Of a stretch of DNA of 64,000 bases, positions 4,951 to 60,777 are shown piece after piece (position 1 is the first letter of the stretch; each line of letters starts with the position of its first letter). A model generated the notes under the pieces. The model was not told the origin of the DNA. It did not search any database and saw only the letters and a program-made list of their open reading frames with translations. A program made the translations under genes and the position numbers. This DNA comes from Parcubacteria group bacterium Greene0416_39 (GTDB taxonomy: Bacteria > Patescibacteriota > Minisyncoccia > Minisyncoccales > UBA10102), in contig VMEU01000001.1 of NCBI GenBank assembly GCA_007375675.1, positions 40,458 to 104,457 on the forward strand, in the 5' to 3' direction.

Positions 4951-5313
4951 ATGAAGACTATCTTGTTTATTGAAGACGAACAAGCTCTCCAGAAAACCGC
5001 CGGAGATACGCTGCGCGAAGCTGGGTTTGAGGTGATCTCGGCCTTGGACGGAGAGATCGGGCTCCGCCTTGCCAAAGACAAGAACCCAGATCTTGTTATC
5101 CTTGACTTGGTGCTTCCCAAGCTGGATGGATTTGAAGTGCTGAAAGCGTTCAAGGAAACGCAAGAAACCTCGCACATTCCTGTCATGGTTTTGACAAACC
5201 TTGAGGGTATAGAGGATATCCAAAAAGTGCTTAGCTTGGGAGCAACTACGTATTTGGTAAAAGCAAATTACACGTTGGCTGAGCTCGTAGAAAAAGTGAA
5301 AAGTGTTTTGTAG
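4951..5313 (+). CDS. Single-domain response regulator (CheY-like receiver)
   Basis: 120 aa; DLVILDLVLPKLDGFEVL; phospho-acceptor Asp context; conserved K near C-terminus. Confidence 0.85.
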   Translation: MKTILFIEDEQALQKTAGDTLREAGFEVISALDGEIGLRLAKDKNPDLVILDLVLPKLDGFEVLKAFKETQETSHIPVMVLTNLEGIEDIQKVLSLGATTYLVKANYTLAELVEKVKSVL

Positions 5314-5328
5314 ATTAGCATTATACTT

Positions 5329-10281: not shown

Positions 10282-10306
10282 ACCCCGCACCATTTTTCAT
10301 ATACTT

Positions 10307-10873
10307 ATGAGATTCTTTCAAACATACCACAAAAAATGGTGCGGGGTGAAAAAAGGCTTTACACTCATTGAGCTTATAGTCTACGTGGCAGTACTAGGCA
10401 TGGTGCTTGCTTCCTTACTCACGTTTTTGCTTTGGGCCGTGAAGTCTCAGACCAAGGCAAATGCAATGCGCCAGGTTCTTGCAGCAGGCCAGAGAGTCCT
10501 GGAAGTGATTTCCCGTGAAGCCGCGGGGGCGACAAGCGTCTACACTCCAACGAGCGTGTTTGGCGTATCACCTGGCCAGGTTTCGCTCCAAACCGGATCA
10601 TACGTTCCTGCGGGAGAAACATCCTCCTTTATTGATTTTTATAAATGCGCAGATACGCTGTGCATGAAAAGAGAATCTCAAAATCCCTTGGCAATTACGT
10701 CAGATAAAGTTTCCGTGACAAGTCTTATCTTTTCCCATGTGGTTACGGGGCAGAATCGTTCTTCTTTGCAGATAACAATAACCCTTGCGGCTAAGACTTC
10801 TTCTCCAAATGCTGAATATCAAGCGTCCATCACCCTAACAGATGCCGTAACTTTGAGATCGTATGCCCAGTAG
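10307..10873 (+). CDS. Type IV minor pilin-like protein (PilW-like)
   Basis: KKGFTLIELIVYVAVLGMVLASLL prepilin signal. Confidence 0.7.
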   Translation: MRFFQTYHKKWCGVKKGFTLIELIVYVAVLGMVLASLLTFLLWAVKSQTKANAMRQVLAAGQRVLEVISREAAGATSVYTPTSVFGVSPGQVSLQTGSYVPAGETSSFIDFYKCADTLCMKRESQNPLAITSDKVSVTSLIFSHVVTGQNRSSLQITITLAAKTSSPNAEYQASITLTDAVTLRSYAQ

Positions 10874-12108: not shown

Positions 12109-12177
12109 ACCCCGTAGTGAAACTTTGACTTGCTTTCGCAAACGAAGTTTGGTCAAAGTTCTACTACAGGGTACAAT
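12109..12177 (+). promoter_or_regulatory. Conserved inverted-repeat leader element (copy 1) upstream of pilM
   Basis: CCCCGTAGTGAAACTTTG ... CAAAGTTCTACTACAGGG forms a ~16-bp outer stem. Near-identical outer arms occur at 54645-54712; a half copy at 35221-35240. Confidence 0.5.
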
Positions 12178-19277: not shown

Positions 19278-19730
19278 ATGAATTGCCCAATGTGTCAAAG
19301 TTCTTCAAAGGTTATAAACTCCAGGAGCGCAGACCATGGGAAAACCGTAAAAAGGCGCAGGGTTTGCATGAAATGCGCCAGGAGATTCACCACATATGAG
19401 CGCATAGAGCTTGTAAATGTCACGGTCTTAAAGCGCAGCGGGGCAAAAGAGCCTTACATGCGCCACAAGCTTCAGCTTGGGATGAGAAAGGCCTTGGAGA
19501 AGAGGCCGTATACCGAGCAGCAATTTGAAAGATTGGTCTCTGGGGCAGAAAATGATATTTTTAACAGGGAACACGATGTCATCTCTTCCGAACAAATTGG
19601 CCAGATTGTTCTTGCGCATTTGAAAGTATTTGATAAGGTTGCCTATCTGCGTTTTGCTTCCGTGTACCGGAGATTTGGGAGCACGAAAGCGTTTGAAAAA
19701 GAGATTGAAAAACTCGAAAAGGGAAAATGA
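19278..19730 (+). CDS. nrdR: Transcriptional repressor NrdR (zinc ribbon + ATP-cone)
   Basis: MNCPMCQSSSKVINSR...RRRVCMKCARRFTTYERIE; ATP-cone follows. Confidence 0.9.
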   Translation: MNCPMCQSSSKVINSRSADHGKTVKRRRVCMKCARRFTTYERIELVNVTVLKRSGAKEPYMRHKLQLGMRKALEKRPYTEQQFERLVSGAENDIFNREHDVISSEQIGQIVLAHLKVFDKVAYLRFASVYRRFGSTKAFEKEIEKLEKGK

Positions 19731-22700
19731 CTTCCATGCAAAAAAATCTTCTTGTACTCTCAAACAAAGAAAAGGGCGCGGTGAACGCCAGATTTTCTGA
19801 AAATGCTCTCAAGATGCTGCGCAAGCGCTATCTTGCTGTTGACGAGAAGGGAGTGCAGGAAACTGCAGCCGATATGTTTGCAAGAGTCGCAAGCGCGTTG
19901 GCAGCAGTGGAGAAAAACTACGGCAAGAAAGAACAGGATGTTAAAAAAGTCGCGCGGGATTTTTTTAACATCATGTCAACAAAAGAATACACTCCTGCGG
20001 GCCGCACGATCACCAATGGAGGAGGCGAAACCCCGGTTATTGCAAACTGCGTTGTCTTGCCTATTCATGATTCTATGGAGAGCATTTTTCAAACCCTCAA
20101 AGACGCGGCCTTGCTGCAGCAGGCAGGTTGCGGCCTTGGCTTTGATCTTTCTGAAATGCGGCCTGCTGACTTCCCTACAAGAAAATCTAGAGGGAGAGCT
20201 TCGGGTCCCGTTACTTTTTTGAAGGTGTATGACTATGCGTTTGGAACCATTAAGCAGCAGGGCAGGCACGGCGCGAATATGTCAATGATGAGGGTAGATC
20301 ACCCAGATGTTTTGGATTTTATTCATTGCAAAGAAGTGGAGGGTGAAATCCACAACTTCAACATTTCAGTCACCGTCACAGACGAGTTCATGGAACAGTT
20401 AGAGAAGAACCCCAACAAGCAGTGGTGGTGCGTATTCAATAACAAGAAATATAAGCCCAGAAAAGTGTTGCGCCATCCCAATGGGAGTGTGTACGGAACA
20501 GAGGAGGTAGATATTAGCGCAAAAGAGGTTTTTGACGAGTTGGTGAAAGGAGCGTGGACAAACGGAGAACCTGGCATTGCGTTTATTGACACGGTGAACA
20601 AAACCAATCCGCTTCCAGGTCTTGGCCCAATCGCAACGTCTAACCCGTGCGTGACAGGAGATACTCTCATACCCACTGAGCAAGGTTTTCTGACAATGGA
20701 GGAGCTCGTAGAGAGGTATGGCAAGGGCGGTGTCAAAATCGCAATCGATGTTCGTGTTCCCAAAACCATTGCCACTTCTCTTGTTGTGGAAAGTCTTATT
20801 GGCAATGGAGGAGAAGAAACAGTTCCTGTGCTGAATCTTTCGTTGTATGGAGAAGAAGGAGTGGGAGAAGTATCTAAAGCATGGAAGACAGGGGTGAAAG
20901 CAGTGTATAAGCTTACGACTCGTTCTGGCTACGAACTTGAAGCAACCGCGGAGCATGAAATTTTTACACCAAAAGGAAAGGTTCCTCTTGGGGAACTTCA
21001 GAAAGGAGATACGTTACTTCTTCAGTCGCGAGAAGGTCTTTGGAGCAACGAAGCGAAATTGCCCTTTACGTTTTCTAACGAGGTTCGAGGACGAAATGGC
21101 CACACGTATCGGTATAACTTTCCGACTGAATGGAGTCAACAGCTCGGGCAAGCCTTAGGATGGCTTATCGGAGACGGCTGGATACGAGAAAAACCAAAAC
21201 AAAACTGCGTAGGTTTTACCTTTGCAGAGGAAGATAAAAAAGTTTTACTGTATCTCAAAGAGATTTTAAACAAGTGGTATCGCAATAGCACTTCTCAAGA
21301 AATCAAAAGGCACAACGGAGTGTACCATTTAGTGTATGGTTCGAAAGATTTTATGCAATATATGAAGAACTTGGGAGTGAAAGCGGTACGTGCCCAAGGG
21401 AAAGAGGTGCCCTCTACTTTATGGAAAGCACCTAGAGAAGCAGTCATCGGATTTCTTCAGGGACTTTTTAGTTCCGACGGGACCATTAATATTTTTGAAC
21501 CAAATCAAACTCGGTATATCCGTCTCACCTCCAAGTCTGAGAAACTCCTCAAGGGAGTACAGCTCTTGCTACTGAATCTTGGCATTCGTTCAACCGTATA
21601 CAATAGAAGTAGGAAACCGAGTATGAAACTTGGATACCCCAACGACGGCGTACTCTTTGAGTTGCAGATTACGAAGACGAACATTCCGATATTCCTTAAG
21701 AAGATCGGATTTCTTGGAACCCATTACACAAAGAAAGCAGAGATACTTAGAACGTGCTCCTACTATCGAGAAACCTTTGAAGACAAGGTGAAAGAAATTC
21801 GGTTTGTTGGAACAAAGAAGGTGTATGACCTTACAGAATCCCTCTCCCATTCTTTGGTTGCAAATGGAATTGTCATATCAAATTGCGGCGAACAATATTT
21901 GCATCCGTATGACAACTGCAACTTGGGATCCATTAATCTTGCGGCATTTGTAAAACAGGGAAAAGTGGATTGGGCAAGACTCCGTTTTGTCACGAGAACC
22001 GCAACACGGCTCATGGACAATGTGATAGACGTTTTTGACTTTCCCGTAAAAGAAGTGACTGACTTAGCCAAGAATAACAGGAGGATTGGCTTGGGCATCA
22101 TGGGTTTTGCTGATATGCTCTATCAGCTTGGGGTGCGCTATGATTCCAAACAAGGATTTGCGTTAGGAGAAAAAGTTATGGGCTTTATTACTAATGAGGC
22201 CCATACAATGTCTGAGGAGTTGGCAAAAGAAAAAGGCGCATTTCCTAACATTGCAAAGAGCGTGTTTGCCAGATCCAAGAAAAAGATGCGCAACGCTGCC
22301 CTTACCACGGTTGCTCCCACAGGTTCTATCTCCATGATGTTTGACTGTTCTTCTGGCATTGAACCAAACTTTGCTCTTTCTTATGTGAAACAAGACAAAG
22401 ACGGCGTCCAATACCACTACCTTAACAAATACTTTGAGGAAGCGGTTGCCAAGTTGAAGCTTGCGGCAAAAGAAAAAGACGAGATTCTCCAGGAGGTTGT
22501 GGGAAAGGGGACCATACAGCATATTGGAAAGCTTCCAAAGGCATTGCGGGATACGTTCGTGATCTCCATGGATATTGTGGGACTTGACCATATGAAAATG
22601 CAGGCTGCGTTTCAGAAGCACGTTGATAACTCTATTTCCAAAACCGTCAACTTCCCAAATTCTGCGACCAGAGAAGATGTTGCCGGAAGTTTTGTAGCGG

Positions 22701-23377
22701 CTTGGAAGTTAGGGTGCAAATCAGCAACCGTGTATCGTGAAGGAAGCAGGGTGGTGCAGATTCTCAACCTTGGCACTGGAGAAAACCTTATTGCTCCCAC
22801 TGCGCTTGGAGTTGGGAAAGACAGCATAGAGAAACTCGACTTGCGCATGGACCAGCAACGTTTGGCCTCAAGGCCAAGGCCAGAGGTGATGACAGGCAAA
22901 ACCTACCGTGTGAAAACAGGGTACGGGAATCTATACGTTACCGTGAACAACGATGAAAAAGGAGTGCCTTTTGAGGTTTTTGCAACCATTGGGAAAAATG
23001 GAGGGTTTTTCCAGGAACAGTCAGAGGCCATATGCAGAATGATCTCTCTTGTGTTAAGAACAGGGGTAAAAATTGAAGAAGTGGTGGAGCAACTAAAGGG
23101 CATTAGAGGGCCAATGCCCATATTCACAGACAAAGGCACTATTCTTTCTCTGCCTGACGCCTTAGGCCGTATTCTTGAAGACCACGTGAAGTTTGCTCCA
23201 AGAGTGGAAGAAGCAGTTGCGAGGCCCGAGAGACAGGAAGTACTTCCTTTTATAGAAAAAAAACAGACCATTGCTGAAATGGGTTTTATGCCAGGATGCC
23301 CTGACTGCGGCTCCCCTTTACTGATGTCTGAAGGATGCATTAGCTGCAAGGAGTGCGGATTTAGCCGCTGTATGTAA
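19727..23377 (+). CDS. nrdJ: Class II (adenosylcobalamin-dependent) ribonucleotide reductase NrdJ, interrupted by an intein
   Basis: RNR catalytic motif split as ...ATSNP | intein | CGEQYLHPYDNCNLGSINL; C-terminal zinc ribbon CPDCG...CKECG; 1216 aa including a 412-aa intein. Confidence 0.9.
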   Translation: MTSMQKNLLVLSNKEKGAVNARFSENALKMLRKRYLAVDEKGVQETAADMFARVASALAAVEKNYGKKEQDVKKVARDFFNIMSTKEYTPAGRTITNGGGETPVIANCVVLPIHDSMESIFQTLKDAALLQQAGCGLGFDLSEMRPADFPTRKSRGRASGPVTFLKVYDYAFGTIKQQGRHGANMSMMRVDHPDVLDFIHCKEVEGEIHNFNISVTVTDEFMEQLEKNPNKQWWCVFNNKKYKPRKVLRHPNGSVYGTEEVDISAKEVFDELVKGAWTNGEPGIAFIDTVNKTNPLPGLGPIATSNPCVTGDTLIPTEQGFLTMEELVERYGKGGVKIAIDVRVPKTIATSLVVESLIGNGGEETVPVLNLSLYGEEGVGEVSKAWKTGVKAVYKLTTRSGYELEATAEHEIFTPKGKVPLGELQKGDTLLLQSREGLWSNEAKLPFTFSNEVRGRNGHTYRYNFPTEWSQQLGQALGWLIGDGWIREKPKQNCVGFTFAEEDKKVLLYLKEILNKWYRNSTSQEIKRHNGVYHLVYGSKDFMQYMKNLGVKAVRAQGKEVPSTLWKAPREAVIGFLQGLFSSDGTINIFEPNQTRYIRLTSKSEKLLKGVQLLLLNLGIRSTVYNRSRKPSMKLGYPNDGVLFELQITKTNIPIFLKKIGFLGTHYTKKAEILRTCSYYRETFEDKVKEIRFVGTKKVYDLTESLSHSLVANGIVISNCGEQYLHPYDNCNLGSINLAAFVKQGKVDWARLRFVTRTATRLMDNVIDVFDFPVKEVTDLAKNNRRIGLGIMGFADMLYQLGVRYDSKQGFALGEKVMGFITNEAHTMSEELAKEKGAFPNIAKSVFARSKKKMRNAALTTVAPTGSISMMFDCSSGIEPNFALSYVKQDKDGVQYHYLNKYFEEAVAKLKLAAKEKDEILQEVVGKGTIQHIGKLPKALRDTFVISMDIVGLDHMKMQAAFQKHVDNSISKTVNFPNSATREDVAGSFVAAWKLGCKSATVYREGSRVVQILNLGTGENLIAPTALGVGKDSIEKLDLRMDQQRLASRPRPEVMTGKTYRVKTGYGNLYVTVNNDEKGVPFEVFATIGKNGGFFQEQSEAICRMISLVLRTGVKIEEVVEQLKGIRGPMPIFTDKGTILSLPDALGRILEDHVKFAPRVEEAVARPERQEVLPFIEKKQTIAEMGFMPGCPDCGSPLLMSEGCISCKECGFSRCM
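20648..21883 (+). mobile_element. Intein in NrdJ with LAGLIDADG homing-endonuclease domain
   Basis: Begins Cys (CVTGDTLI, Hint block A); ends ...GIVISN with +1 Cys; two LAGLIDADG motifs LGWLIGDGWI and FLQGLFSSDGTI. In frame: 20648-19727=921 and 21884-19727=2157. Confidence 0.85.
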
Positions 23378-23459
23378 AATAATGCGAATCTACAAATCCA
23401 TGCGAATGTACAAATCTATTATATTCGCGGCATTCGCACATCATTTGTAGATTTGCATT
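23378..23459. repeat. 85-nt quasi-palindromic GCGAAT/ATTCGC-rich intergenic element, copy 1
   Basis: AATGCGAATCTACAAAT ... ATTTGTAGATTTGCATT outer inverted repeat; inner TGCGAATG / TATTCGCGGCATTCGCA. Fills the nrdJ stop to pduO start gap exactly. Confidence 0.7.
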
Positions 23460-24029
23460 ATGCTATTCTATACGGGCAAAGGAGACAAGGGGAGTTCTGT
23501 TATCGGGAAAAAGAAGTTTCCCAAAGATTCTCCTGTGCCCGAGGTCTTAGGCGAGCTCGACGAACTAAACAGCTTGATAGGACTTTTCAAAAGTACTGAA
23601 AAAGGGAAACCATTTTTTTTAAAACTTACCAAGGTTCAGGAGACTCTCTTTATCATTCAAGCGAGAATAGCGTGGATTCTCTATCCAAAATTCTCCTCTC
23701 CCCAGGTCTTAGGAGAAAAAATAAAGGAGCTTGAAAAAGAGATTGAGAGAGCTGAAAAAACAATACATCCTGAGCGCGGTTTTGTGATTTCTGGAACCAA
23801 TGAAACTTCCTCATGGCTTGATTATCTGCGGGCCGTAGCGAGAAGAGTGGAAAGGAGGGCGTATACTCTTTCCCGCCTTCGCCAAGGCTACGGCGGGCAG
23901 GCCAAAAAATATGCAGTTCCAAAAGAAATACTTGCGTATCTCAACCGGCTTTCAAGTTATCTGTACGCTTTAGCTCGGCTTGAGATTCACAAGAAAAAAC
24001 TCAAAGAACCAAAACCAAGTTATAAATAA
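23460..24029 (+). CDS. pduO: PduO-type ATP:cob(I)alamin adenosyltransferase
   Basis: N-terminal MLFYTGKGDKGSS (consensus is YTRTGDKG); 189 aa; sits beside the B12-dependent RNR. Confidence 0.75.
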   Translation: MLFYTGKGDKGSSVIGKKKFPKDSPVPEVLGELDELNSLIGLFKSTEKGKPFFLKLTKVQETLFIIQARIAWILYPKFSSPQVLGEKIKELEKEIERAEKTIHPERGFVISGTNETSSWLDYLRAVARRVERRAYTLSRLRQGYGGQAKKYAVPKEILAYLNRLSSYLYALARLEIHKKKLKEPKPSYK

Positions 24030-24113
24030 TAATGCAAATCCACAAATGACTGCGAATGTACAAATACGAGTATTCGCGGCATTCGCATATTATTCGTAGA
24101 TTCGCATTTTACT
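24028..24113. repeat. 85-nt quasi-palindromic intergenic element, copy 2
   Basis: Same organisation as copy 1; ATG of the downstream gene follows directly. Confidence 0.7.
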
Positions 24114-24650
24114 ATGAACCGCACCCTTTTTGCCTTCCTTTTACTTATAGCAATCGGCACTATCACAGTAAGACTTCTCCCTCATATGCCAAACTTTACT
24201 CCCATGGGGGCGCTTGCGCTTTTTGTTGGGGTATACCTCGCAAAGGCTCACAAAGCCGCTCTGTTACTCCCGTTGCTTGCGATGTTCTTATCCGATCTTT
24301 TCATTGGATTCTACGATGCAAAGCTTATGGCAGTGGTGTACGGAAGCTTTCTATCTTATGGCGTTATTGGAATGTTGGTTGTCAAACAAAAAAACGCTCA
24401 AACAGTTTTGCTCGGCAGCATTGGAGGAGCAGTGATATTCTACCTTACAACAAACTTTGCCGTATGGGCGTTTTCCAGCTGGTATCCCCATACGCTTTCA
24501 GGCTTGATGCTTTCTTACACGCTCGCGCTTCCTTTTTTCAAGTATACCCTGTTGGGGGATGTGTTTTTCTCCGCGCTTTTCTTTGGCGCGTACGAGTTTG
24601 CGAAGACGTACATGGTACAGCGCGAAGCGAAGATCGCGGTGGTTCCTTAG
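24114..24650 (+). CDS. Small polytopic membrane protein; possible solitary ECF-type S component (cobalamin?)
   Basis: 178 aa, ~5 TM helices, RLLPHMPNFTPMGALALFVG N-terminal motif reminiscent of ECF S components. The substrate guess rests on genomic context only. Confidence 0.4.
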   Translation: MNRTLFAFLLLIAIGTITVRLLPHMPNFTPMGALALFVGVYLAKAHKAALLLPLLAMFLSDLFIGFYDAKLMAVVYGSFLSYGVIGMLVVKQKNAQTVLLGSIGGAVIFYLTTNFAVWAFSSWYPHTLSGLMLSYTLALPFFKYTLLGDVFFSALFFGAYEFAKTYMVQREAKIAVVP

Positions 24651-24667
24651 GAGCGGGATAATAGTAG

Positions 24668-25876
24668 ATGAAGACAGTCAAGTCTTTTGTAAAAGAATCT
24701 CTTGAGTATTCATTTTTTGGGACGCAAAGGTTCGCCATTGAAGCGCTCACGAAAACTCAGTCTCAGCAATGGCACAGGTTTGATATTTTGCGCAGGCTGA
24801 GCCTGAACCTTATTTTCCTTGGAATTTACGGATTCATCGTATGGCAGACATTCCAAGGGAAATTTACCTTAGGAGAAATGACCCTGCTCATTCAGCTTGC
24901 AACACAAACGCAGTTTCCCTTGTTTGCCTCCTCCTTTATTGTTGAACAAGTTCAAAAAGCTCAAACAGGGAGTAAAGACTTTTTTGAAACTCTCGCGTTA
25001 GAGCCTGCCATTAAAGACAGACCTAAGGCAAAAGAGCTGCAGGTTGTGAAGGGCAAAGTGGAGTATCAAAACGTGTCATTTCAATACGAAAAGGGCGCAA
25101 CAGTTTTGCAGAGAATATCTTTTGCCATACCTCCTGGAACAAAGCTCGCTTTGGTAGGAGAAAGCGGAGAAGGGAAAACCACCATCGCAAACCTTCTCCT
25201 GCGCTTGTACGAGCCCTTTGAGGGCGAGATCCTTATTGACGGCATGAATATTAAAGAAGTAACCCAATCCTCTCTGCGAAAGAATATTGCGGTTGTATTT
25301 CAATCTCCCTCTTTATTTTCAGGCACTGTCCGAGAAAGTATTGCGTATGGCACAGACGAGGCAATAGAAGACAAGATCGTGCGCGCCGCAAAAGCGGCAA
25401 ATGCCCACGACTTTATCATGAAGCTTCCTCAAGGGTATGACACCTTGATTGGAGAACGGGGAGTAAAGCTGTCAGGAGGGCAGCAGCAAAGAGTCGCCAT
25501 TGCAAGAGCAGTGTTGAAAAACGCCCCACTATTGATTCTGGACGAAGCAACAAGTTCTTTGGACAGCAGGTCAGAGAGAGAAGTCCAAGGAGCATTGGAA
25601 GTGTTGATGCAGGGCCGCACCACTCTTATTATCGCGCACCGCCTCTCAACCATTCAAAACGTAGACACTATTGTTACCCTCAAAGAGGGGAGGGTAGATG
25701 AAATAGGAACGCCCGGGGAGTTGGCCTCAACAAAGGGCATTTACGCGCAACTGCTTTCGCTCCAGCAAATGCCTTTGCTTTTGAGGAAACAAAAACTCAA
25801 GCAGTACGACATTGAGAGCGGGCCGCCCTCGCCCAAAGGGCGGGGCGAGCCTCGCTCAAATTTCGCAGAAATTTGA
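24668..25876 (+). CDS. ABC transporter ATP-binding protein with only a partial transmembrane domain (N-terminally truncated type I exporter)
   Basis: Walker A GESGEGKTT; signature LSGGQQQRVAIARA; Walker B ILDEATSSLD; H-loop. Only ~130 aa (2 TM) precede the NBD. Confidence 0.75.
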   Translation: MKTVKSFVKESLEYSFFGTQRFAIEALTKTQSQQWHRFDILRRLSLNLIFLGIYGFIVWQTFQGKFTLGEMTLLIQLATQTQFPLFASSFIVEQVQKAQTGSKDFFETLALEPAIKDRPKAKELQVVKGKVEYQNVSFQYEKGATVLQRISFAIPPGTKLALVGESGEGKTTIANLLLRLYEPFEGEILIDGMNIKEVTQSSLRKNIAVVFQSPSLFSGTVRESIAYGTDEAIEDKIVRAAKAANAHDFIMKLPQGYDTLIGERGVKLSGGQQQRVAIARAVLKNAPLLILDEATSSLDSRSEREVQGALEVLMQGRTTLIIAHRLSTIQNVDTIVTLKEGRVDEIGTPGELASTKGIYAQLLSLQQMPLLLRKQKLKQYDIESGPPSPKGRGEPRSNFAEI

Positions 25877-25946
25877 GCGGGTGATGGGAATCGAACCCAC
25901 GTGCCTTGATTGGCAACCAAGTGTACTGCCATTGTACTACACCCGC
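25876..25946 (-). tRNA. tRNA-Gly(GCC)
   Basis: Acceptor GCGGGTG/CACCCGC; D-stem GTAC/GTAC; anticodon stem CTTGG/TCAAG, loop TTGCCAA; T-arm GTGGG-TTCGATT-CCCAT. Confidence 0.75.
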
Positions 25947-25969: not shown

Positions 25970-26251
25970 TGCCGCGGGGGTGAATTGAACACCCGACGCC
26001 AGCCTCTTCCAAAGGCCGTTTTGGACTATCTCATCTCCCTTGAAAGGGAGTTGGGCGCTATTTGCAGGATTATTGTTGGGACTCACCCGCTAGTCTCTAC
26101 ACCTTCCGAGAAACTACTACCCTTCTCGGCTTGGCTCGGGATTGATCGTCCCAGACGATTTTTCCCCGAATTCACCCAATTTTTCAATCCGCCTTACGAC
26201 GGAAAGCCCCAAAGAGTTTAGGGCTGCGCTCTACCACTGAGCTACCGCGGC
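25970..26251 (-). tRNA. tRNA-Phe(GAA) interrupted by a 210-nt group I intron (exons 26220-26251 and 25970-26009)
   Basis: 5' exon GCCGCGGTAGCTCAGTGGTAGAGCGCAGCCCT; 3' exon GAAGAGGCTGGCGTCGGGTGTTCAATTCACCCCCGCGGCA. Joined, the anticodon loop is CTGAAGA. Confidence 0.8.
26010..26219 (-). mobile_element. Group I self-splicing intron in the tRNA-Phe anticodon loop (between nt 33 and 34)
   Basis: P1 pairs exon AGCCCU with intron GGGGCU, with U.G at the 5' splice site. P/Q/R/S-like elements AATTCGGGGAAA, AATCCCGAGC, GTGTAGAGACTAGCG, GAGATAGTCC. Terminal omega-G. No ORF inside. Confidence 0.8.
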
Positions 26252-28827: not shown

Positions 28828-28900
28828 TGGGCGTGGATGGACTCGGACCATCGACCTCGGCCTTATAAGGACCTTGCTCTGACCACTGAGCTACACGCCC
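28828..28900 (-). tRNA. tRNA-Ile(TAT) candidate (AUA decoder); anticodon arm has a 27-43 A.G mismatch
   Basis: Acceptor GGGCGTG/CACGCCC; D-arm GCTC-AGTGGTCA-GAGC; anticodon stem AGGTC/GGCCG (4 pairs), loop CTTATAA; T-arm GATGG-TCCGAGT-CCATC; CCA encoded. Confidence 0.5.
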
Positions 28901-31900
28901 CCATTATACTTTTCTTGCCAATCAACCTTTCAAACTCTTCTCGCTCCAATGTTTCCTTTTCTATCAGGGCTTTGGCTATCTTGACAAGCGTTGGCCTTTT
29001 TTGTTTCAAAACGTTCTCCGCCTTTTTTCTCGCGACTTCTACAAGGCCAGATACCTCTTTATCTATTTCTTCGGCAAGTTTTTGGGAATAGTTCACATAT
29101 TCTCCAATGTGCGCGAACGGGTGCTCCTCCCTTTCTCCAAAAGTTACGGGTCCCAGCGATTCAGACATGCCGTATTCTTTCACGAGGCGCCGTGCAAGAT
29201 CTGAAGCCTGCTGAAGATCATTGCTCGCTCCCGTGGTCACATCTTTGAATACCAACTTCTCTGCGCAGTATCCTCCAAGAAACGTTGCGAGTTCATCCAA
29301 AAATTCTGCTCTGCTCTTTAAATGTTTTTCTTCTGAAGGGAGTTTCAAAGTGTATCCTCCAGCTCTTCCTCGGGATATGATGGAAACTTTGCGCACCGGG
29401 TCTGCGTGGGGGAGCGAAGAAGCAACCAAAGCATGGCCTGCTTCATGGTACGCGGTGATCTCTTTTTCTTTTTTGGAAAGAATGTGGCTTTTCCTTTCAG
29501 GGCCCAAGAGCACCTTGTCTATGGATTCCAGAAGTTCTTCTTGGGAGACTATGGTTTTGTTGCGCCTCGCAGTAAGAATTGCTGACTCGTTCATAAGGTT
29601 GGCAAGGTCTGCCCCTGAAAATCCTGGGGTTCTCTCTGCAATTTCCCGTAAAGAGGTTTTGGGAGCCAATGGTTTGCCCAAGGAATGAATCTTGAGGATT
29701 TCTTCCCTGTCATTCACGTCAGGAAGGTCAAGAACGATTCTTCGGTCAAAGCGTCCTGGCCTCAAAAGAGCAGAATCCAACACGTCAGGGCGATTGGTAT
29801 TGTGAAGTAGGATAGGGCTTTCTCCTCCAAAGAAAGCTTCATTCTCGCAGCCACAGAAATCGTAGACGTAACCGTCATAAGGCAACTTCCTGATCGACTT
29901 CACAATCGCTCGTTTCGTGCTTGCTTTTCCGATTTTTGGATCGAGGGGATTTTGTGTTTTCCCAAATCCAAGCCGATATGCCTTGGTTTCTTGGAGTGGC
30001 TTCCCATCCCTAATTTTTCTTCCCGCTTTCACCGTAAATTCACGAATATAGCTTTTGAATCCGTGCATTCGAGAAAGCCAGTTTAATCCAAGGATTAGAC
30101 GCTTGCTTACCGAAGTAAGCTCGAGGCGTCCTCGTGTATCGGTGTAACCGTCTCCTGCTGCATATCCTTTGAGAAATTCAGTGTAGTATTCCTTTGGAGC
30201 TTCAAAAAGGAACTGGGGCACCTGTTTATTTTTTGCGCCTTTCCCACAGTGAAACGCAAGGAAGCTTGCGACAGGCTTGCAGTGGTACACAATATTTATG
30301 GCGTTTTTGGTAATATGACGTTCCCGATCTGGTTCAAGGTGAAAGATGGTTTTCATCAGATATCTCACGTCTTCTATGTATTCCTTTTCCTTCTCATTGA
30401 AACAAAAATCGAGTTCTTTCCTGGCATAACCCTCGGCGGTATAGTATCCAAAAAGCCTCATCAATTCTGGGCTTACTTCCACTGTTTCTGGAAGTTGATC
30501 TTTATATTGGTAGTAATTCCTACTTAGCGCTCGCGGCACACAAATACCCTGTTGCCATTTTCCAATAGTTCTTTGAGAGAACCCCAGCATATTGCCAAGC
30601 TCTGTTTGCGACGTTTCTCCCTCATGAGTACGAGCAAATTGATACGCATACTCTACTGACTGAAAAGGCATAAAGAGTGGTTCCCATAGCTGGAGTTGGA
30701 GCTCGAGTTTCTGGCTAAACTTATGGCCCCGTATTTCTCTCCTGTTTTTATTGGTGCGATTTACTTTATATGGAAGATCTACAAGAATGTCCCCTGGTTT
30801 AATTTCACATACAGGTTTTGGAACCAGCCCTTGAGCATTCGTTCGTATAAATACAGAGTGATTCCCAGTAGTTCTGATAGTTCCTCCCATATATTCTACT
30901 TCGTAAATCTCCTGTACTTTGTGACGGAATACGCTCCGCACTTTCTTAAATGCGCTGTTCTGGAGATACGTCTTTTTTTGCGCAGAAAATCCTTTTCCAA
31001 TTTTCTTTTCAAACCCAAGCACCTCTAATCTTTGCGACGGTTTTTCTACTCCTTCTTCGCCCTCTTGATAGTAGGGGTCTATGACTTGATCGATAGGAAG
31101 AAGCTTATCCTCCCCATTTTCTCGAATTAGTACAGGAGTATCACCGGTAACGCTTGCACCCATCACTATGCGTTGATCGTCTCGCTCAAAGCCGTCCATT
31201 TCCACTAAGATTTGGTTTAAGGTTTGTTCTCGTTCCTCGTGTCCGCCCGTGAATCCAGAGCCCCTCGTGCGGCCAATGGCGTCTAATTCGTCAATAAAGA
31301 TAATGCTTCTCCCAGCCCTTTTTGCAGTAGAAAAGAGATCCCGAACTCTCGAGCTTCCCACACCCACGAACATTTCCACGAATTCAGAACCTGAAGCAGA
31401 AAAGAATGCGACTCCAGCTTCGTTGGCCACAGCTCTTGCCAACAGGGTTTTCCCTGTGCCGGGCGCCCCTACCAAAAGCACTCCTCTTGGGATGCGAGCT
31501 CCCATGTCTAGATACTTTTTTGGGTTCTTCAAAAAATCCACTACTTCCTGGAGCTCTTCTTTTGCTTCTTTGAGACCTGCAACGTCTTTGAACGTGACTT
31601 TTTCTTTTGTCTGGCCGTCTGCTCCAAATAACCTGGCGCGAGACTTTGTGAACTCAAACGCCTGCCCGAGTCCAGCTCTTGCCTGGCGGAACATCATCAA
31701 AAAGAAGAACACGAAAAAGAGCATGGGAAGAATCACAAACAGAAAAGGCGAAATCCAGGCCCCAATGCCGCCTTCCTTTCTCTGCTCAATTGTTACATTG
31801 TTTAATTGTTCTTTATCAACTCCTAAGTTGAGAAGCGTTTGGGAAAGAGAGGAATCAGACTCTTTGAGAGCAGCAACTTCAGAGCCGTCTTCCAAAGTTA

Positions 31901-32081
31901 CCTTGAGCGCAGTCCCCTCAAGAACAATGCTTTTGGTATTCCCCTTGTTGATGTCTTGCACAAGCTCGCTCAAGGAGATCTGCTTTTGAGCTTCAAACGG
32001 CCGTGCAAAAAGCGAAAACAGCGCCGAGAGCACCAGGAGCGCCACAAACGCAACAAGAAGGTTTTTAGAAAAGTTTTTCAT
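28863..32081 (-). CDS. ftsH: ATP-dependent zinc metalloprotease FtsH, interrupted by a 452-aa intein
   Basis: N-terminal TM; Walker [16 protein letters not shown]; Walker [10 protein letters not shown]; sensor-1 region split as IVMGA | intein | TNRPDVLD; protease HEAGHALVA. 3' end overlaps the tRNA at 28828-28900. Confidence 0.9.
29799..31154 (-). mobile_element. Intein in the FtsH AAA module (Ser1 ... Asn, +1 Thr) with degenerate LAGLIDADG-like endonuclease region
   Basis: [15 protein letters not shown] start; ...[10 protein letters not shown]|TNRPD end; [14 protein letters not shown] and [13 protein letters not shown] motifs; 1356 nt, in frame. Without it FtsH is ~620 aa. Confidence 0.8.
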
Positions 32082-35220: not shown

Positions 35221-35240
35221 ATTCAAATTTCTACTACAGG
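35221..35240 (+). promoter_or_regulatory. Half copy (3' arm) of the pilM leader element, 3 nt before the ATG at 35243
   Basis: CAAATTTCTACTACAGGG compared with CAAAGTTCTACTACAGGG at 12160-12177 and 54695-54712. Confidence 0.4.
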
Positions 35241-35242
35241 GT

Positions 35243-48194: not shown

Positions 48195-49361
48195 TCATTC
48201 CAACCGTAAATTGGGCTTGGCAGCAATACGACTGAGGGCTTTGCCATGTTTTTTCTTTGAGAGATTGAAAAACCCTGCTAAAGCGGGCATCAAACCATTG
48301 TCAGTACACAGCCCAGGAGGAGCGACTAAAACTTGTATTTTGTATTTAGTATCTTGTATTTTGTATCGTAACTGTCTCCGGAGTTCTTCGTTTGCAGCGA
48401 CGCCGCCGCCAAGAACGATGCTTTTTGCGTTGTATTCGTAGGCGGCGCGCAGAGTTTTTGCTATCAATACGTCAATAATGGCTTGCTGAATTTCTTTTGC
48501 CATTGCACGGGTATATTCTTTTGATTTTCTTACTTTTTCTGGGCGTGACTTCCAGTCGTAGAGCACTGCAGTTTTCAAGCCGGAAAAGCTGAAGTCGTAA
48601 TCTTTCGTGTGCATCATTGGCCTAGGTAATTTAGGCAGAGAAAACGAAATTTTAGAAAACGTTTCCCCCCTTCCTCGCTTCGCTCGGAAGCCGCGCCCAC
48701 CCCCCACGTTTTCAAAATTTGTTTTCTCTGCCTCTTTGGCAATTGCTGGCCCGCCTGGATACGGAAGACCCAAAATTCTCGCGGTTTTATCAAAACATTC
48801 TCCTGCCGCGTCGTCTCTTGTTTCGCCTAGAATTTTATATTCTCCAAGCCCCGTTACCAACACCAGCTGGGTGTGTCCTCCAGAGACGAGCAAAGCAATA
48901 GCGGGGAAAGTGTTTTTAGTATTTAGTATTTTGTATTTAGTATTTTGTATTTGTTTCGGATTTTCATTTCCATAGAAAAACAGGGAAATGAGCATGTGTC
49001 CTTCCATGTGATCTATGGGAACTAGAGGAACGTTCCATTTTTTGGCAAGGTCTTTTGCAAACTCAATCCCAGTCCATAGACATGGATCAAGTCCAGGACC
49101 ATACGTAACCGCAATAACATCAATTGCGGGCTGTGCGAAGACGCCGGCCTCTTGGAGAGCGCGCTCGAGCACAACCGGCAAGTTTTTTATGTGTTCTCGT
49201 TTTGCGAGCGATGGGTACACCCCTCCGTATTTTGCATGAAGTTTTGCCTGGGAAGCAATAACGTTTGAGAGAATGCGAAAACGAGGGTTTTTCTTCCCTT
49301 GAATCTCTAAAACTGCGATAGCAGTTTCGTCGCACGAAGTTTCAATACCTAATATTCGCAT
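48195..49361 (-). CDS. tsaD: tRNA N6-adenosine threonylcarbamoyltransferase TsaD, carrying two in-frame low-complexity insertions
   Basis: MRILGIETSCDETAIAV...GVYPS...; insertions IQNTKYKILNTKNT and KIQDTKYKIQV are encoded by AT-rich tandem repeats at 48913-48952 and 48332-48368. Confidence 0.85.
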   Translation of the reverse strand: MRILGIETSCDETAIAVLEIQGKKNPRFRILSNVIASQAKLHAKYGGVYPSLAKREHIKNLPVVLERALQEAGVFAQPAIDVIAVTYGPGLDPCLWTGIEFAKDLAKKWNVPLVPIDHMEGHMLISLFFYGNENPKQIQNTKYKILNTKNTFPAIALLVSGGHTQLVLVTGLGEYKILGETRDDAAGECFDKTARILGLPYPGGPAIAKEAEKTNFENVGGGRGFRAKRGRGETFSKISFSLPKLPRPMMHTKDYDFSFSGLKTAVLYDWKSRPEKVRKSKEYTRAMAKEIQQAIIDVLIAKTLRAAYEYNAKSIVLGGGVAANEELRRQLRYKIQDTKYKIQVLVAPPGLCTDNGLMPALAGFFNLSKKKHGKALSRIAAKPNLRLE

Positions 49362-49425
49362 ATCCTTGAGCATAAGCGAAGTATTGATTTTTTGCAATTT
49401 TTGAGGTAGAATTGGAATACTCTAG

Positions 49426-51901: not shown

Positions 51902-52906
51902 ATGGCTGAAATGGTAAATTCTAAAAGGGCAAAGTTCCCTAGAGGGCTACAAAGAAGGTTCATTCAGAAAGTTCTCATAAACCTTTCTTTTGAGAAAGTC
52001 GCAGGTCTTTGTGGAGTTTCTCAGCGTACCATAAGAGATTGGCGCCGCGAAAAGTTTTTAATGGATTTTAGTGCCGTCAAGGTATTATGCAACAGAGCAA
52101 AGCTGCCATTCCCGCAACATATCAAGCTCAAGGATCGTTATTGGTATACTTCAAAAGGAGCCAAGTATGGCTGGAGTTTGGTGCTCAAAAAATATGGGAG
52201 GATTCCTTTAGATGAAGAGTATCGTAAAGAGAAATGGTATGAATGGTGGGAACGGGAGGGAAGGTATAAAAGGCATCCTATCATAAACGTTTCCAAACCA
52301 ATCCGAAAACCCGCTTTTTCCAAGGAGCTTGCCGAATTTGTAGGTATTGTGTTAGGTGATGGTGGCATAAGTAAAAGGCAGATTACGGTATCTTTACACA
52401 GTATCGATGACAAAGAATATTCACATTATGTTTCTGCATTAATCAAAAAGCTTTTCCTTGTTCCTGTTTCAATTCGTCCAGATAAAAACGCTAAAGTTGT
52501 AGATCTTGTTATTTCTCGTACGGAGTTGATACGTTTCTGTACCCAGACATTAGGCTTACGAATCGGCAACAAAGTAAAACAGCAAGTAGATGTTCCTCAT
52601 TGGATTAAACACAATAAGAGCTATATTCTTGCCTGCACCAGGGGACTTGTTGATACCGATGGTTCCGTATATCTTCACAGATACAAGGTAAATGGGAAGT
52701 GGTATACGTATTCAAAACTTTCGTTTTCTAATCGTTCCATGCCACTTCTTCAGTTTGTGCTTTGTACCTTTAAAACGCTTGGCATGAATCCTCGTTTAAC
52801 CAAGTATAACGAGGCCGTACGTTTAGAAAGTAAAAACGACATGAAATCATATTTTGGTTTAATAGGAACTCATAACCCGAAATATTTGAAGAAATACAGG
52901 AATTAG
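51902..52906 (+). CDS. Free-standing LAGLIDADG homing endonuclease (two motifs)
   Basis: FVGIVLGDGGISKRQ and ACTRGLVDTDGSVYLH LAGLIDADG motifs; 334 aa; divergent from the nested tRNA locus 70 nt away. Confidence 0.75.
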   Translation: MAEMVNSKRAKFPRGLQRRFIQKVLINLSFEKVAGLCGVSQRTIRDWRREKFLMDFSAVKVLCNRAKLPFPQHIKLKDRYWYTSKGAKYGWSLVLKKYGRIPLDEEYRKEKWYEWWEREGRYKRHPIINVSKPIRKPAFSKELAEFVGIVLGDGGISKRQITVSLHSIDDKEYSHYVSALIKKLFLVPVSIRPDKNAKVVDLVISRTELIRFCTQTLGLRIGNKVKQQVDVPHWIKHNKSYILACTRGLVDTDGSVYLHRYKVNGKWYTYSKLSFSNRSMPLLQFVLCTFKTLGMNPRLTKYNEAVRLESKNDMKSYFGLIGTHNPKYLKKYRN

Positions 52907-54565: not shown

Positions 54566-54644
54566 CAGTGTAATAAATTCGCAGAGTTGTTGCAAAGTTC
54601 TTGACATGGTATACTGATGCGGTAATCATTTCCAAACCCCGTAG

Positions 54645-54712
54645 TGAAACTTTGGCATGTGGTTCCCAAAGGAAACACATCGTTGCTGAAAGCAGCCAAA
54701 GTTCTACTACAG
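54645..54712 (+). promoter_or_regulatory. Conserved inverted-repeat leader element (copy 2) upstream of the second pilus cluster
   Basis: CCCCGTAGTGAAACTTTGG ... CCAAAGTTCTACTACAGGG with a different internal hairpin pair; preceded by TTGACA at 54600. Confidence 0.5.
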
Positions 54713-54769
54713 GGAAAGGTCGAGAGGAATATAGCAGTGATGCAAGATATTTTTTCGTAAAATCGAACT

Positions 54770-56087: not shown

Positions 56088-56172
56088 TGCAAATCTACGA
56101 ATGACTTCGAATGCCGCAAATAAATACTATTCGTACATTCGCATATAATTTGTAGATTCGCATTATACTATT
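56085..56172. repeat. 85-nt quasi-palindromic intergenic element, copy 3, inverted relative to copies 1, 2 and 4
   Basis: Matches the reverse complement of copy 2 over its whole length: CGAATGCCGCAAATA core on the left, TACATTCGCA on the right. Confidence 0.7.
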
Positions 56173-60690: not shown

Positions 60691-60777
60691 CATAATGCAA
60701 ATCCGCAAATGACTGCGAATGTACAAATACGAGTATTCGCGGCATTCGCATAGTATTTGTAAATTCGCATTATATGT
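60690..60777. repeat. 85-nt quasi-palindromic intergenic element, copy 4
   Basis: Fills the pilT stop to pilC start gap exactly; same orientation as copies 1 and 2. Confidence 0.7.

Follow-up and report, generated by a model that had tools for sequence, protein, structure and literature searches.

Four operon junctions in the window, by which we mean the whole 64-kb stretch of DNA analysed here, are each filled by one copy of a quasi-palindrome of 82 to 88 nt that spans the gap from the upstream stop codon to the downstream start codon. This arrangement raises the question of what kind of element occupies such positions and how it came to be there. As set out below, the four copies and a solo arm are probably non-autonomous, MITE-like, gene-less miniatures of a Patescibacteria-wide family of operon-junction cassettes, and would be co-transcribed as hairpins. 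No description of this cassette family was found in the searchable literature, and it is apparently undescribed.

Build of the palindromic elements

A first-pass annotation of this DNA had reported four copies, and its sequence and coordinates for each, the filling of a stop-to-start gap by each, and its names for the flanking genes (which agreed with the Pfam results) were all confirmed (Table 1). The gene 3' of copy 2, annotated as a "membrane protein", is DUF6580 in Pfam. All four copies are real and lie between protein-coding genes, but a solo arm had been missed. It overlaps the TAG stop codon of a response-regulator gene (4951-5313), ends 1 nt short of the ATG of a pilB-like gene (5329), and is probably what is left of a copy that has decayed, the loss of a unit having a precedent in strain L120, where copy 2 is without its last 22-nt unit. 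No further copies of the element were present in the 10 kb added on either side of the window. Copy 1 adjoins nrdJ/nrdR.

Table 1. Positions and composition of the palindromic elements in the window
Feature	Position	Strand	Junction	Units (orientation)	Termini
Copy 1	23378-23459	.	nrdJ-pduO; stop TAA 23375-23377, ATG 23460	23382-23397 (+), 23400-23415 (+), 23423-23439 (-), 23443-23458 (-)	ATA/ATGC...GCAT/TAT
Copy 2	24028-24113	.	pduO-DUF6580; stop 24027-24029, ATG 24114	24032-24047 (+), 24050-24065 (+), 24072-24088 (-), 24092-24107 (-)	
Copy 3	56085-56172	.	pilM-pilN; stop 56085-56087, ATG 56173	56087-56102 (+), 56104-56120 (+, GCCGCAAAT variant), 56129-56144 (-), 56148-56163 (-)	
Copy 4	60690-60777	.	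pilT-pilC; stop 60688-60690, ATG 60778	60695-60710 (+), 60713-60728 (+), 60735-60751 (-), 60755-60770 (-)	
Solo terminal unit with ATTATACT tail (TTTGTAGATTAGCATTATACT); right arm, fifth partial copy	5306-5327	-			

The building block is a unit of 16-17 nt, ATGCRAAT-N3/4-CRAAT, which recurs with a period of 18-19 nt, twice in forward and then twice in reverse orientation, and the element ends are TAATGC...GCATTA. The arms are 17-19 nt long and 95% complementary, and the 64 kb contain four copies and one remnant. The inverted-repeat arms of about 17 nt that had been described were borne out, the 17-nt arm AATGCRAATCYRCRAAT having 17 matches at ≤3 mismatches against 2.8 expected, a number that 0 of 100 shuffles reached. 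The hexamer GCGAAT/ATTCGC had been said to occur four to five times per copy, but exact counts were 4, 4, 2 and 4 for copies 1 to 4. Its window-wide count was at chance (32 versus 31.5), with 14 of the 32 occurrences inside the four elements, and only this clustering was significant. The two alternative pairings proposed for the core do exist, but they are a trivial outcome of the repetition of the 16-17-nt unit.

Copy 3 had been described as the reverse complement of the other copies over its whole length. This holds against copy 1, whereas in comparison with copies 2 and 4 the flip is confined to the core and the spacers (GAC on the left, TATA on the right) keep the same orientation. The asymmetric core of copy 3 is thus inverted relative to the other copies, and the gene-carrying cassettes described below show the copy 3 orientation; either an inversion of the whole element or a flip of the core alone could have produced it. 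Copies 2 and 4 are 94% identical across 83 nt, which we count as support for their having spread or been converted recently in the window genome.

We take the unit and its direct-repeat arrangement to be unlike NrdR, ARG and DnaA boxes, CIRCE, parS, DNA-uptake sequences and attC core sites, and the arm AATGCRAATCYRCRAAT to bear no resemblance to the Correia repeat. Integron attC core sites have the form R''/R' = RYYYAAC...GTTRRRY, and integrons have cassette genes that vary between strains and an IntI integrase. An attC site or integron gene cassette was rejected as an identity for the elements, given their TAATGC...GCATTA ends and flanking genes that, between the window and its relatives, are conserved housekeeping genes in conserved order. 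A search of the window against Rfam at gathering thresholds returned only tRNAs and one group I intron, with no rRNA and nothing at the elements.

The same junctions in related genomes

The junctions were compared with those of relatives whose flanking proteins are 64-86% identical. At nrdJ-pduO the element is absent, the spacer being 4 nt in L204 and 1 nt in L206 and L207, and the genes overlapping in L205. At pduO-DUF6580, L204 and L207 have just 4 nt and no element, and L205 has an unrelated palindrome of GTATTT units. In L210 both pilus sites are empty (6 nt at pilM-pilN, 13 nt at pilT-pilC), and in L211 and L212 other palindrome or cassette types were found at pilM-pilN, that of L212 being an IVP-type cassette, while pilT-pilC of L211 holds a cassette with a 23S_rRNA_IVP gene. 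Stop codons, start codons and first residues are conserved between empty and filled sites (MLFYTGKGD, M-x-DLIPKQ and MKFNYQAR). Since the relatives' junctions measure only 0-13 nt at all four sites, the elements are insertions; they are shown to have entered a short stop-to-start spacer with both ancestral codons kept and to be absent from close relatives. The proposal that the element inserts like a miniature inverted-repeat mobile element was therefore strongly supported, with all four junctions empty in relatives and the number of units varying between strains. An ancestral fusion of pilM and pilN, split by copy 3, was considered and rejected, as PilN homologues have 169-174 aa and the PilM stop codon is ancestral.

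A non-palindromic target-site duplication was not detected, direct repeats outside the inverted repeat being no different from a permutation control. About half of 54 elements have the termini (A)TA...TA(T), which fit a palindromic TA duplication that is indistinguishable from an extension of the inverted repeat. From these termini and one comparison of an empty with a filled site, a TA dinucleotide is possibly the target. Some cassettes occupy one and the same site in genomes that have diverged (L144, L146 and L190), a distribution that shows long vertical inheritance rather than frequent movement.

These comparisons bear on the function that had been proposed for the element, namely a portable internal promoter and operator, bound by a shared regulator, that would let the downstream gene be transcribed almost without a leader and place the B12/RNR and pilus clusters under joint control. 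The right termini do finish in ATTATA/TATAnT-like sequence near the ATG, and leaderless expression is plausible in an organism in which Shine-Dalgarno motifs are few (10/67 genes) and many element-free genes show TAnnnT 6-10 nt before the ATG. The repeated units could also serve as protein-binding sites, and Correia elements create promoters at their own ends (PMC2649163). However, all four sites are empty in relatives that retain the same operons, and the start codons are ancestral, having formerly lain 1-13 nt after the upstream stop. A -10-like hexamer had been placed 5-12 nt before the ATG in every copy; in copies 2-4 the hexamers end 0-3 nt before it (TTTACT directly followed by ATG, TATACT-ATT-ATG and TATATG-T-ATG), too close for the start codon to be at +1, and copy 1, whose arm adjoins the ATG directly, therefore lacks one. 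A sigma-70 consensus scan found no outward, plus-strand promoter at the element 3' ends, where the terminal TATAAT-like hexamers face inward. The genes that flank such elements across genomes are functionally unrelated (L24, SSB, ClpB, TyrRS, RmuC, rpoA, CTP synthase, nusG-rplK) and make up no regulon, and the same arrays flank a nuclease gene. Neither the promoter nor the shared operator was thus upheld, and we regard this explanation as very unlikely, although promoter activity may arise as a side effect, by analogy with Correia elements. A consensus scan predicted no intrinsic terminator at any copy, the stems being AT-rich and followed directly by the ATG.

Gene-carrying cassettes and the GxxExxY protein

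A search with the arm pattern returned 119 loci, nearly always intergenic, from Saccharibacteria, Falkow-, Uhr-, Moran-, Giovannoni-, Wildermuth- and Parcubacteria and other lineages, and 69 of the 119 contained multi-unit arrays, mostly two forward units followed by two reverse. Gene calls in the fetched loci were simple longest-ORF calls, and many of the cassette contigs are only 1-3 kb long. A GxxExxY gene between the unit arrays was first noticed in L020, L066 and L098. When loci were fetched by the GxxExxY protein alone, window-type units in forward-then-reverse order were found on both flanks in 42 of 80 and on one flank in 20, with almost none elsewhere. In a de novo test, 58 of 63 GxxExxY genes were flanked by a significant inverted repeat, compared with 5 of 39 neighbouring genes, and three of those five neighbours are IVP cassette genes. 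The full-length cassette consists of two to three direct units of 16-18 nt (ATGCRAAT-N3/4-CRAAT), a GxxExxY gene of about 130 codons and the same array inverted. In 37 of 37 cases, the cassette gene runs in the same direction as its host genes.

The relation of the window copies to such cassettes could be traced directly, since the reverse complement of copy 2 aligns over 72/86 nt to the arrays of the L192 GxxExxY cassette minus its gene. In addition, gene-less and gene-carrying elements of one contig have genome-specific termini in common in L188, L147 and L158, and the same sharing was seen for the IVP-type cassette in L211. The array hexamers differ by cassette lineage (GCGAAT, CCGAAT, CCGGAT, ACTAAT, TCAGAT), and the arms of one cassette always agree. 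A miniature would be the two arrays joined without the gene, and two inverted arrays so joined make a palindrome. With a central loop of only 5-20 nt, lacking an ORF, and no GxxExxY homologue in the window, the window copies were classed as gene-less derivatives. No GxxExxY gene was found in the window or in the 10 kb on either side, and a resident mobilising gene is accordingly unproven for the window genome.

The same architecture could be read in the opposite direction, with the gene-less palindrome as the original element, serving as a landing pad or attachment site whose centre GxxExxY and IVP genes enter later, for example by nuclease homing; the miniatures would then be "empty" sites and not deletion derivatives. 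That the gene always lies exactly in the loop between the inverted arrays, that two unrelated gene families share one architecture and that one host junction carries different cassette types in relatives would all fit such a history. However, the array sequence tracks the gene family or lineage, GCGAAT window-type units occurring with GxxExxY and other hexamers with IVP, and orthologous sites yielded no case of a single palindrome that holds a gene in one genome and none in another. The palindromes would, moreover, still have to insert at new junctions, so that a mobilisation mechanism would still be needed. We consider this order of events unlikely and retain the derivation of the miniatures from gene-carrying cassettes.

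GxxExxY (PF13366) belongs to the PD-(D/E)XK group and is predicted to be a minimal RecB/Cas4-like nuclease with an intact D...ExK plus QxxxY site. Its invariant residues are D69, E79, K81, Q93 and Y97. An AlphaFold model had a pLDDT of 91.8, and the PDB folds that best matched it were Cas4 SSO0001, lambda exonuclease and AddB-type nucleases. On the invariant site residues, the model confidence and these nuclease folds, the protein looks functional. The only families above curated cut-offs were PF13366 and TIGR04256, apart from one protein with a weak sub-threshold match to HSDR_N_2, and when the GxxExxY profile was run against PDB sequences, no relative of solved structure emerged. Pfam lists the function of PF13366 as unknown, and the family is seldom mentioned in the literature, even though this Patescibacteria clade by itself yielded more than 1,500 relatives in a search. 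In a plasmid collection only two GxxExxY genes were found. That of a member of the Bacteroidota has the same inverted-array architecture with CACAGAGA units, and in place of inverted arrays the gene of a member of the Fusobacteria has direct repeats some 50 nt long.

Hairpins, known repeat families and implications

Copies 1-4 fold as long hairpins, with sense-strand energies of -22.7 to -34.4 kcal/mol (z of -2.4 to -7.4), the lowest being that of copy 1 at -34.4 kcal/mol. An RNA element of benefit to the host, REP-like or IVS-like, might therefore be envisaged, in which RNase III processing or stabilisation of the upstream mRNA sets the ratio of the cistrons. The strength of the sense-strand hairpins (mean -32 kcal/mol), the position always inside operons, an architecture like that of the 23S rRNA intervening sequences (IVSs) excised by RNase III (PMC4990558) and the IVS-protein gene in sibling cassettes are in its favour. 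Against it, stem mismatches disfavour the sense-strand hairpin (103 A.C versus 56 G.U, p = 2.4e-4) and the antisense fold is the more stable in 23 of 31 elements; the A.C excess and the antisense stability argue against a positively selected sense-RNA structure. In the cassettes, transversions exceed transitions (336 versus 219) and neither strand is favoured; Rfam gives no match, and the sites are empty in close relatives. With the mismatch and fold biases running the opposite way, a selected sense RNA structure was dropped as the primary explanation, and we hold a host-beneficial RNA element to be distinctly improbable.

The preferred explanation therefore remains a mobile one. We infer that a resident GxxExxY nuclease, by recognising the unit arrays, would mobilise the miniatures in trans in an IS/MITE- or RAYT/REPIN-like manner, possibly with the TA dinucleotide as the target of insertion. 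We know of no strand-joining activity of a 130-aa PD-(D/E)XK nuclease, so the chemistry of transposition cannot be named. Once inserted, the elements would be transcribed within the operon, and their arms would pair into a hairpin (-23 to -34 kcal/mol), at the base of which the upstream stop and the downstream start codon would meet. A terminating ribosome could open this hairpin and so preserve translational coupling, or RNase III could cut it, as in the architecturally similar 23S rRNA IVSs and Correia elements. Any promoter or regulatory effects would be secondary.

Among known systems, prokaryotic MITEs and their autonomous IS partners (reviewed in PMC10969869) resemble these elements in being small, non-coding and dispersed in many copies, bounded by terminal inverted repeats and polymorphic for insertion among relatives. 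Both also have a longer, gene-carrying partner that shares their genome-specific termini, and the (A)TA...TA(T) termini are like those of TA-targeting families. Here, however, no DDE, HUH or serine transposase is encoded by the partner, whose product is a 130-aa PD-(D/E)XK GxxExxY protein. Each side of the inverted "repeat" comprises an array of two to three short direct units, there is no demonstrable target-site duplication, and insertions are confined to operon stop-start junctions with the cassette gene always co-oriented with the host genes. The REP/REPIN-RAYT system is similar in that one small gene lies between inverted copies of a repeat that is also dispersed intergenically without the gene, as palindromic doublets; the repeat differs between lineages and matches within a genome, and inheritance is partly vertical. 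It differs in that the fold here is PD-(D/E)XK (nearest Cas4 and lambda exonuclease) rather than that of an HUH Y1 (IS200/IS605-like) transposase, the units are not themselves palindromic, and the sites are operon junctions, whereas REP sequences mostly lie downstream of genes.

To our knowledge, Correia elements have no known autonomous partner. As described in PMC2649163, these elements of Neisseria (CREE/NEMIS) are palindromic, of about 100-150 bp with TA ends, inserted between co-transcribed genes, with RNase III-cleavable hairpin transcripts and the ability to create promoters at their ends. The present elements share the palindromic build, the TA ends and the position, but are unrelated to them in sequence and phylum, and their predicted -10-like hexamers face inward. 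The 23S rRNA IVSs with S23p/23S_rRNA_IVP ORFs, known from Leptospira and Coxiella (PMC4990558), have in common with the cassettes a small ORF inside terminal inverted repeats that form a long stem, set in a longer transcript that tolerates excision. Sibling cassettes carry the PF05635 gene at pilM-pilN (L212), pilT-pilC (L211) and nusG-rplK (L074), and these IVP cassettes also have gene-less miniatures (L211). In contrast to IVSs, the elements studied here lie between protein-coding genes and not in rRNA helices 25/45, and the window copies lack an ORF and have arrays that match the GxxExxY cassettes, not the IVP cassettes.

We tentatively extend this to a wider proposal, which we put forward as a possibility rather than as the probable outcome: that the genes for GxxExxY (PF13366) and 23S-rRNA-IVS proteins (PF05635) serve as cargo or for mobility in unrecognised mobile "junction cassettes". 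Bounded by inverted arrays of short, lineage-specific units, such cassettes would insert at operon stop/start junctions, and sometimes in rRNA (where they would be the IVSs), and spawn gene-less palindromic miniatures, the class reaching beyond Patescibacteria. If the cassette interpretation of the window elements is correct, it would give the GxxExxY family its first functional context and link it architecturally to the long-puzzling ORFs of the 23S rRNA intervening sequences. The elements would apparently also be the first MITE-like family described in Patescibacteria, whose tiny, dense genomes are not expected to tolerate them; a literature search for Patescibacteria repeats or MITEs returned nothing relevant, and the phylum is absent from a 2024 review of prokaryotic MITEs. 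For those who work with such genomes, the repeats would break metagenome assemblies and create false N-terminal extensions in gene calls, examples being the 24056 ORF of the window and the IVP ORF at L211:11580. For the organisms themselves, the few nucleotides between operon stop and start codons would be a place where several element families have landed repeatedly and independently of one another in related genomes, and operon architecture would be altered in bacteria that apparently rely on leaderless or coupled translation.

Structure of the elements and their junctions

Sequence inspection placed the four copies where the first-pass annotation had put them, each spanning from the upstream stop codon to the downstream ATG, and Pfam identified the flanking genes that it had named (see table). 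In the window, the 17-nt arm pattern had 17 matches at ≤3 mismatches against 2.8 expected, a count reached by 0 of 100 shuffles, and copies 2 and 4 were 94% identical over 83 nt. The building block is a 16- to 17-nt unit, ATGCRAAT-N3/4-CRAAT, with an 18- to 19-nt period, repeated twice forward and twice in reverse. Both the alternative pairings and the hexamer array described earlier follow from this arrangement, although the exact hexamer occurs 4, 4, 2 and 4 times in copies 1 to 4, not 4 to 5 times in each. Copy 3 had been described as inverted throughout; the inversion of its core was confirmed, and whether the rest is flipped too varies with the copy used as reference. At the DUF6580 locus the longest ORF opens at an ATG within copy 2, in a frame different from that of the DUF6580 gene, and illustrates the spurious ORFs to which these elements give rise.

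Repeats and other features of the window
Feature	Position	Content or flanking genes	Spacer in relatives
Copy 1	23378-23459	class II ribonucleotide reductase with intein (nrdJ), then pduO (Pfam)	overlapping, 1 nt or 4 nt
Copy 2	24028-24113	PduO-type cobalamin adenosyltransferase, then DUF6580 (Pfam)	4 nt
Copy 3	56085-56172	PilM (Pfam), then PilN-like protein without Pfam hit	6 nt
Copy 4	60690-60777	PilT-type ATPase, then PilC (Pfam)	13 nt
Solo arm (fifth, partial copy)	5306-5327	one terminal unit plus ATTATACT; overlaps stop of response-regulator gene, pilB-like gene begins just after	
ORF opening in copy 2	24056-24661		
DUF6580 gene	24114-24650		
16-nt inverted repeat	10282-10347	ACCCCGCACCATTTTT / AAAAATGGTGCGGGGT, perfect, around start codon of gene at 10307	
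Second family, full copies	12109-12172, 54637-54714	each just upstream of a gene	
Second family, half copy	35229-35242	right arm alone (TTCTACTACAGGGT), directly 5' of ATG at 35243	
NrdJ	19727-23377	1216 aa; intein with LAGLIDADG domain (Pfam)	
tRNA-Gly(GCC)	25875-25946	same strand as group I intron	
Group I intron match	26000-26229 (- strand)	just beyond the tRNA	
FtsH	28863-32081	1072 aa	
TsaD gene	48195-49397 (- strand)	400 aa, reading frame uninterrupted	
TsaD gene repeat regions	48334-48366, 48911-48957, 48633-48733		
Arm related to TsaD repeats	52694-52729		

Strain-level relatives share the window copies, and one of them (locus L120) is without one 22-nt unit of copy 2, indicating that unit number slips between strains. 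The ancestral junctions were read from more distant relatives, with PduO homologues of 71 to 86% identity and PilN homologues of 64 to 75%. In these the four junctions measure 13 nt or less, and the stop codons, ATGs and first residues of the junction genes are conserved. The elements therefore entered very short intercistronic spacers and left both reading frames intact, which accounts for their exact fill of the stop-to-start gaps and strongly supports the earlier suggestion that they insert like a miniature mobile element. They are mobile or at least insertional, and stop-start junctions tolerate them. Comparison of empty and filled sites at nrdJ-pduO is consistent with insertion at a TA to which the base just before the ATG contributes. 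Termini of the form (A)TA...TA(T) were present in about half of 54 elements; a non-palindromic target duplication beyond the permutation control was not found at the elements.

A scan with a single arm pattern across one genome per species returned at least 119 loci, at least 69 of them with multi-unit arrays, mostly two units forward and then two reverse. Among the matches listed, these arrays come from many Patescibacteria lineages and are nearly always intergenic, at median distances of 14 nt to the flanking stop and 10 nt to the flanking start; flanking genes were co-directional in at least 65 cases, convergent in at least 5 and divergent in at least 5. Some array-bearing MAGs are labelled Gammaproteobacteria, a label taken as recorded.

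Gene-carrying cassettes

Three loci have a gene of ~130 codons between their arrays; Pfam and NCBIfam assign it to PDDEXK_3/GxxExxY. Among 80 metagenome loci fetched by the GxxExxY protein alone, window-type units (scored at ≤3 mismatches, so that diverged units are undercounted) stood on both flanks, forward then reverse, in 42 and on one flank in 20, and were almost absent away from the gene flanks. The loci scored as having none carry analogous arrays of other hexamers (CCGGAT, CCGAAT, ACTAAT/ACGAAT, TCAGAT). A de novo test that assumed no unit sequence found a significant flanking inverted repeat at 58 of 63 nonredundant GxxExxY genes, compared with 5 of 39 neighbouring genes, 3 of which were genes of 23S_rRNA_IVP (IVP) cassettes. 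Metagenome near-duplicates were removed before this test and the mismatch test below, and gene calls in fetched loci were longest-ORF heuristics. The cassette gene followed the orientation of the host genes in all 37 informative cases.

The window elements are related to these cassettes. With its gene taken out, the cassette of locus L192 aligns with the reverse complement of copy 2 at 72 of 86 nt, and where one contig carries both gene-less elements and cassettes, the two have idiosyncratic termini in common (L188, L147, L158). A nuclease gene for the window genome was not found in the window or 10 kb either side.

A search with the protein returned 1,550 relatives at E ≤ 1e-10; every one is named GxxExxY or hypothetical, and many lie on very short contigs. 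D69, E79, K81, Q93 and Y97, invariant in a 35-sequence alignment, are presumably the D...ExK and QxxxY motifs of RecB-like nucleases. The AlphaFold model was confident (pLDDT 91.8), and its best PDB matches were weak (E about 1e-3, TM 0.5-0.6), comprising Cas4 SSO0001, an Argonaute-associated Cas4-family protein, lambda/alkaline exonucleases and AddB/AdnAB nuclease domains; a PDB sequence search detected no solved structure. GxxExxY is seldom mentioned in the searchable literature, and Pfam's source paper for the family lists its function as unknown, with "multiple transfers".

The nuclease cassette and gene-less miniatures are arranged like RAYT/REPIN systems. Given this likeness, the agreement of lineage-specific arrays between arms and the match of cassette and miniatures within a genome, we infer that the GxxExxY nuclease may recognise the arrays and mobilise both; the proposed system includes no joining enzyme.

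The same junctions are reused. The nusG-rplK gap has four different contents in four genomes: a GxxExxY cassette (L178), an IVP gene (PF05635, E 2e-33) between inverted CCGTTA/CGGTAA arrays (L074), a gene-less palindrome of AAAGTT units (L093) and a GC-rich palindrome (L192). Elsewhere in the loci, too, IVP genes lie between inverted arrays, each with its own hexamers. In relatives of the window organism, the pilM-pilN junction holds an IVP (PF05635) cassette in L212 (670-1220) and a gene-less palindrome of CAAAAA units in L211 (6897-7000); 4.5 kb away, pilT-pilC of L211 (11580-12040) holds an IVP cassette with the same array variant, whose gene call enters the left array, likely as a false N-terminal extension. 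At pduO-DUF6580, the relative L205 has a palindrome of GTATTT/AAATAC units. These varied contents indicate that various members of a single architectural class have colonised the junctions repeatedly, which could reflect either targeting or the survival of only harmless insertions.

Outside Patescibacteria, the repeat association of GxxExxY may take other forms. A Bacteroidota plasmid gene has inverted CACAGAGA arrays on its flanks, whereas that of Fusobacteria plasmid CP102406.1 (L208, 895-1640) lies between direct, not inverted, ~50-nt repeats (…AATCAGTGAAAA…CAGATTTAATCCGTGTACCTAT), with a third copy upstream. Significant flanking inverted repeats also surround genes for a 90-aa winged-helix protein (L148, 2681-2953) and a 171-aa SET-domain protein (L182, 232-747), which may represent additional cargo types for the cassette architecture. 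By eye, the flank of an IVP-family gene in L102 (1223-1663, - strand) resembles the 5' part of a 16S rRNA gene (GGCGAACGAGTTAGTAACAC...); were this right, the gene would be an rRNA-embedded member of the same gene family, of the sort reported among CPR rRNA insertions (PMC11270868).

Expression across the occupied junctions

The first-pass annotation had proposed an internal promoter plus operator driving the downstream gene under a shared regulator. Across genomes, the genes downstream of arrays include L24, SSB, ClpB, TyrRS/TrpRS, RmuC, glycosyltransferases, rpoA, CTP synthase and rplK, a diversity that rules out a regulon. A sigma-70 consensus scan found no outward promoter at element ends; the terminal TATAAT-like hexamers point inward, where they could serve the nuclease gene in cassettes. 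The -10-like hexamers, placed earlier at 5 to 12 nt before every ATG, end 0 to 3 nt from it and are lacking in copy 1. The genome itself does seem inclined to leaderless expression: Shine-Dalgarno-like motifs precede only 10 of 67 window genes (heuristic gene calls) and many have a TAnnnT hexamer 6 to 10 nt ahead of the ATG (TATAAT-GAAAGA-ATG at 63780; TATACT-TAAAAC-ATG at 8346), which suggests widespread leaderless or short-leader expression. Because the hexamers at the elements are too close, the sites are empty in relatives and the neighbours are diverse, the promoter-operator model lacks support as an account of the primary function; promoter activity may occur as a side effect.

The elements must, we infer, be co-transcribed with their operons. 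The predicted sense hairpins of the window copies (-23 to -34 kcal/mol) would set the upstream stop beside the downstream start at their base, and coupling could survive because the ribosome, on terminating, would open the outer stem and so free that start. Sense-strand stem mismatches were 103 A.C versus 56 G.U (p = 2.4e-4), and the antisense fold was more stable than the sense fold in 23 of 31 elements (p = 3e-4); gene-carrying cassettes had no such A.C bias. The simplest reading is selection weakening the sense-mRNA hairpin where the arms adjoin; alternatively, the other strand may have a function. The analogy with 23S rRNA IVSs, in which RNase III cuts a 28-bp stem (PMC4990558), and with Correia elements (PMC2649163) makes RNase III processing of the hairpins plausible.

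Other selfish elements and relation to known families

Several classes of selfish element are present in the window genome. The TsaD gene holds two GTATTT-type unit arrays, of the kind that builds the L205 palindrome, and a ~100-nt palindrome with arms AGGCAGAGAAAACGAAATTTTAGAA / TTTTCAAAATTTGTTTTCTCTGCCT about a GC-rich centre; these look like in-frame repeat-element insertions, a likeness to Rickettsia palindromic elements. A second palindromic family (ACCCCGTAGTGAAACTTTGRC, variable 22- to 38-nt centre, GYCAAAGTTCTACTACAGGG) had no Rfam match at the gathering threshold. The gene at 10307 reads TATACTT-ATG at its start, as at the solo arm (5327). The group I intron match scored 64.6 bits in Rfam (gathering score 50). 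NrdJ is intein-less in relatives L204, L205 and L206 (796-814 aa), and FtsH, with precomputed Intein_splicing and faint LAGLIDADG_3 matches, probably holds an intein too.

The searchable literature yielded no relevant account of a MITE-like family in CPR/Patescibacteria. Patescibacteria are absent from a 2024 review of prokaryotic MITEs (PMC10969869), and a 2024 survey of CPR rRNA insertions (PMC11270868) records IVP ORFs and makes no mention of inverted repeats, palindromes or PDDEXK. MITE-like palindromes whose partners carry a gene are a kind of element already known. What appears new here is the partner gene, together with the array-type ends, the strict location at junctions and the connection to cassettes for IVS proteins.
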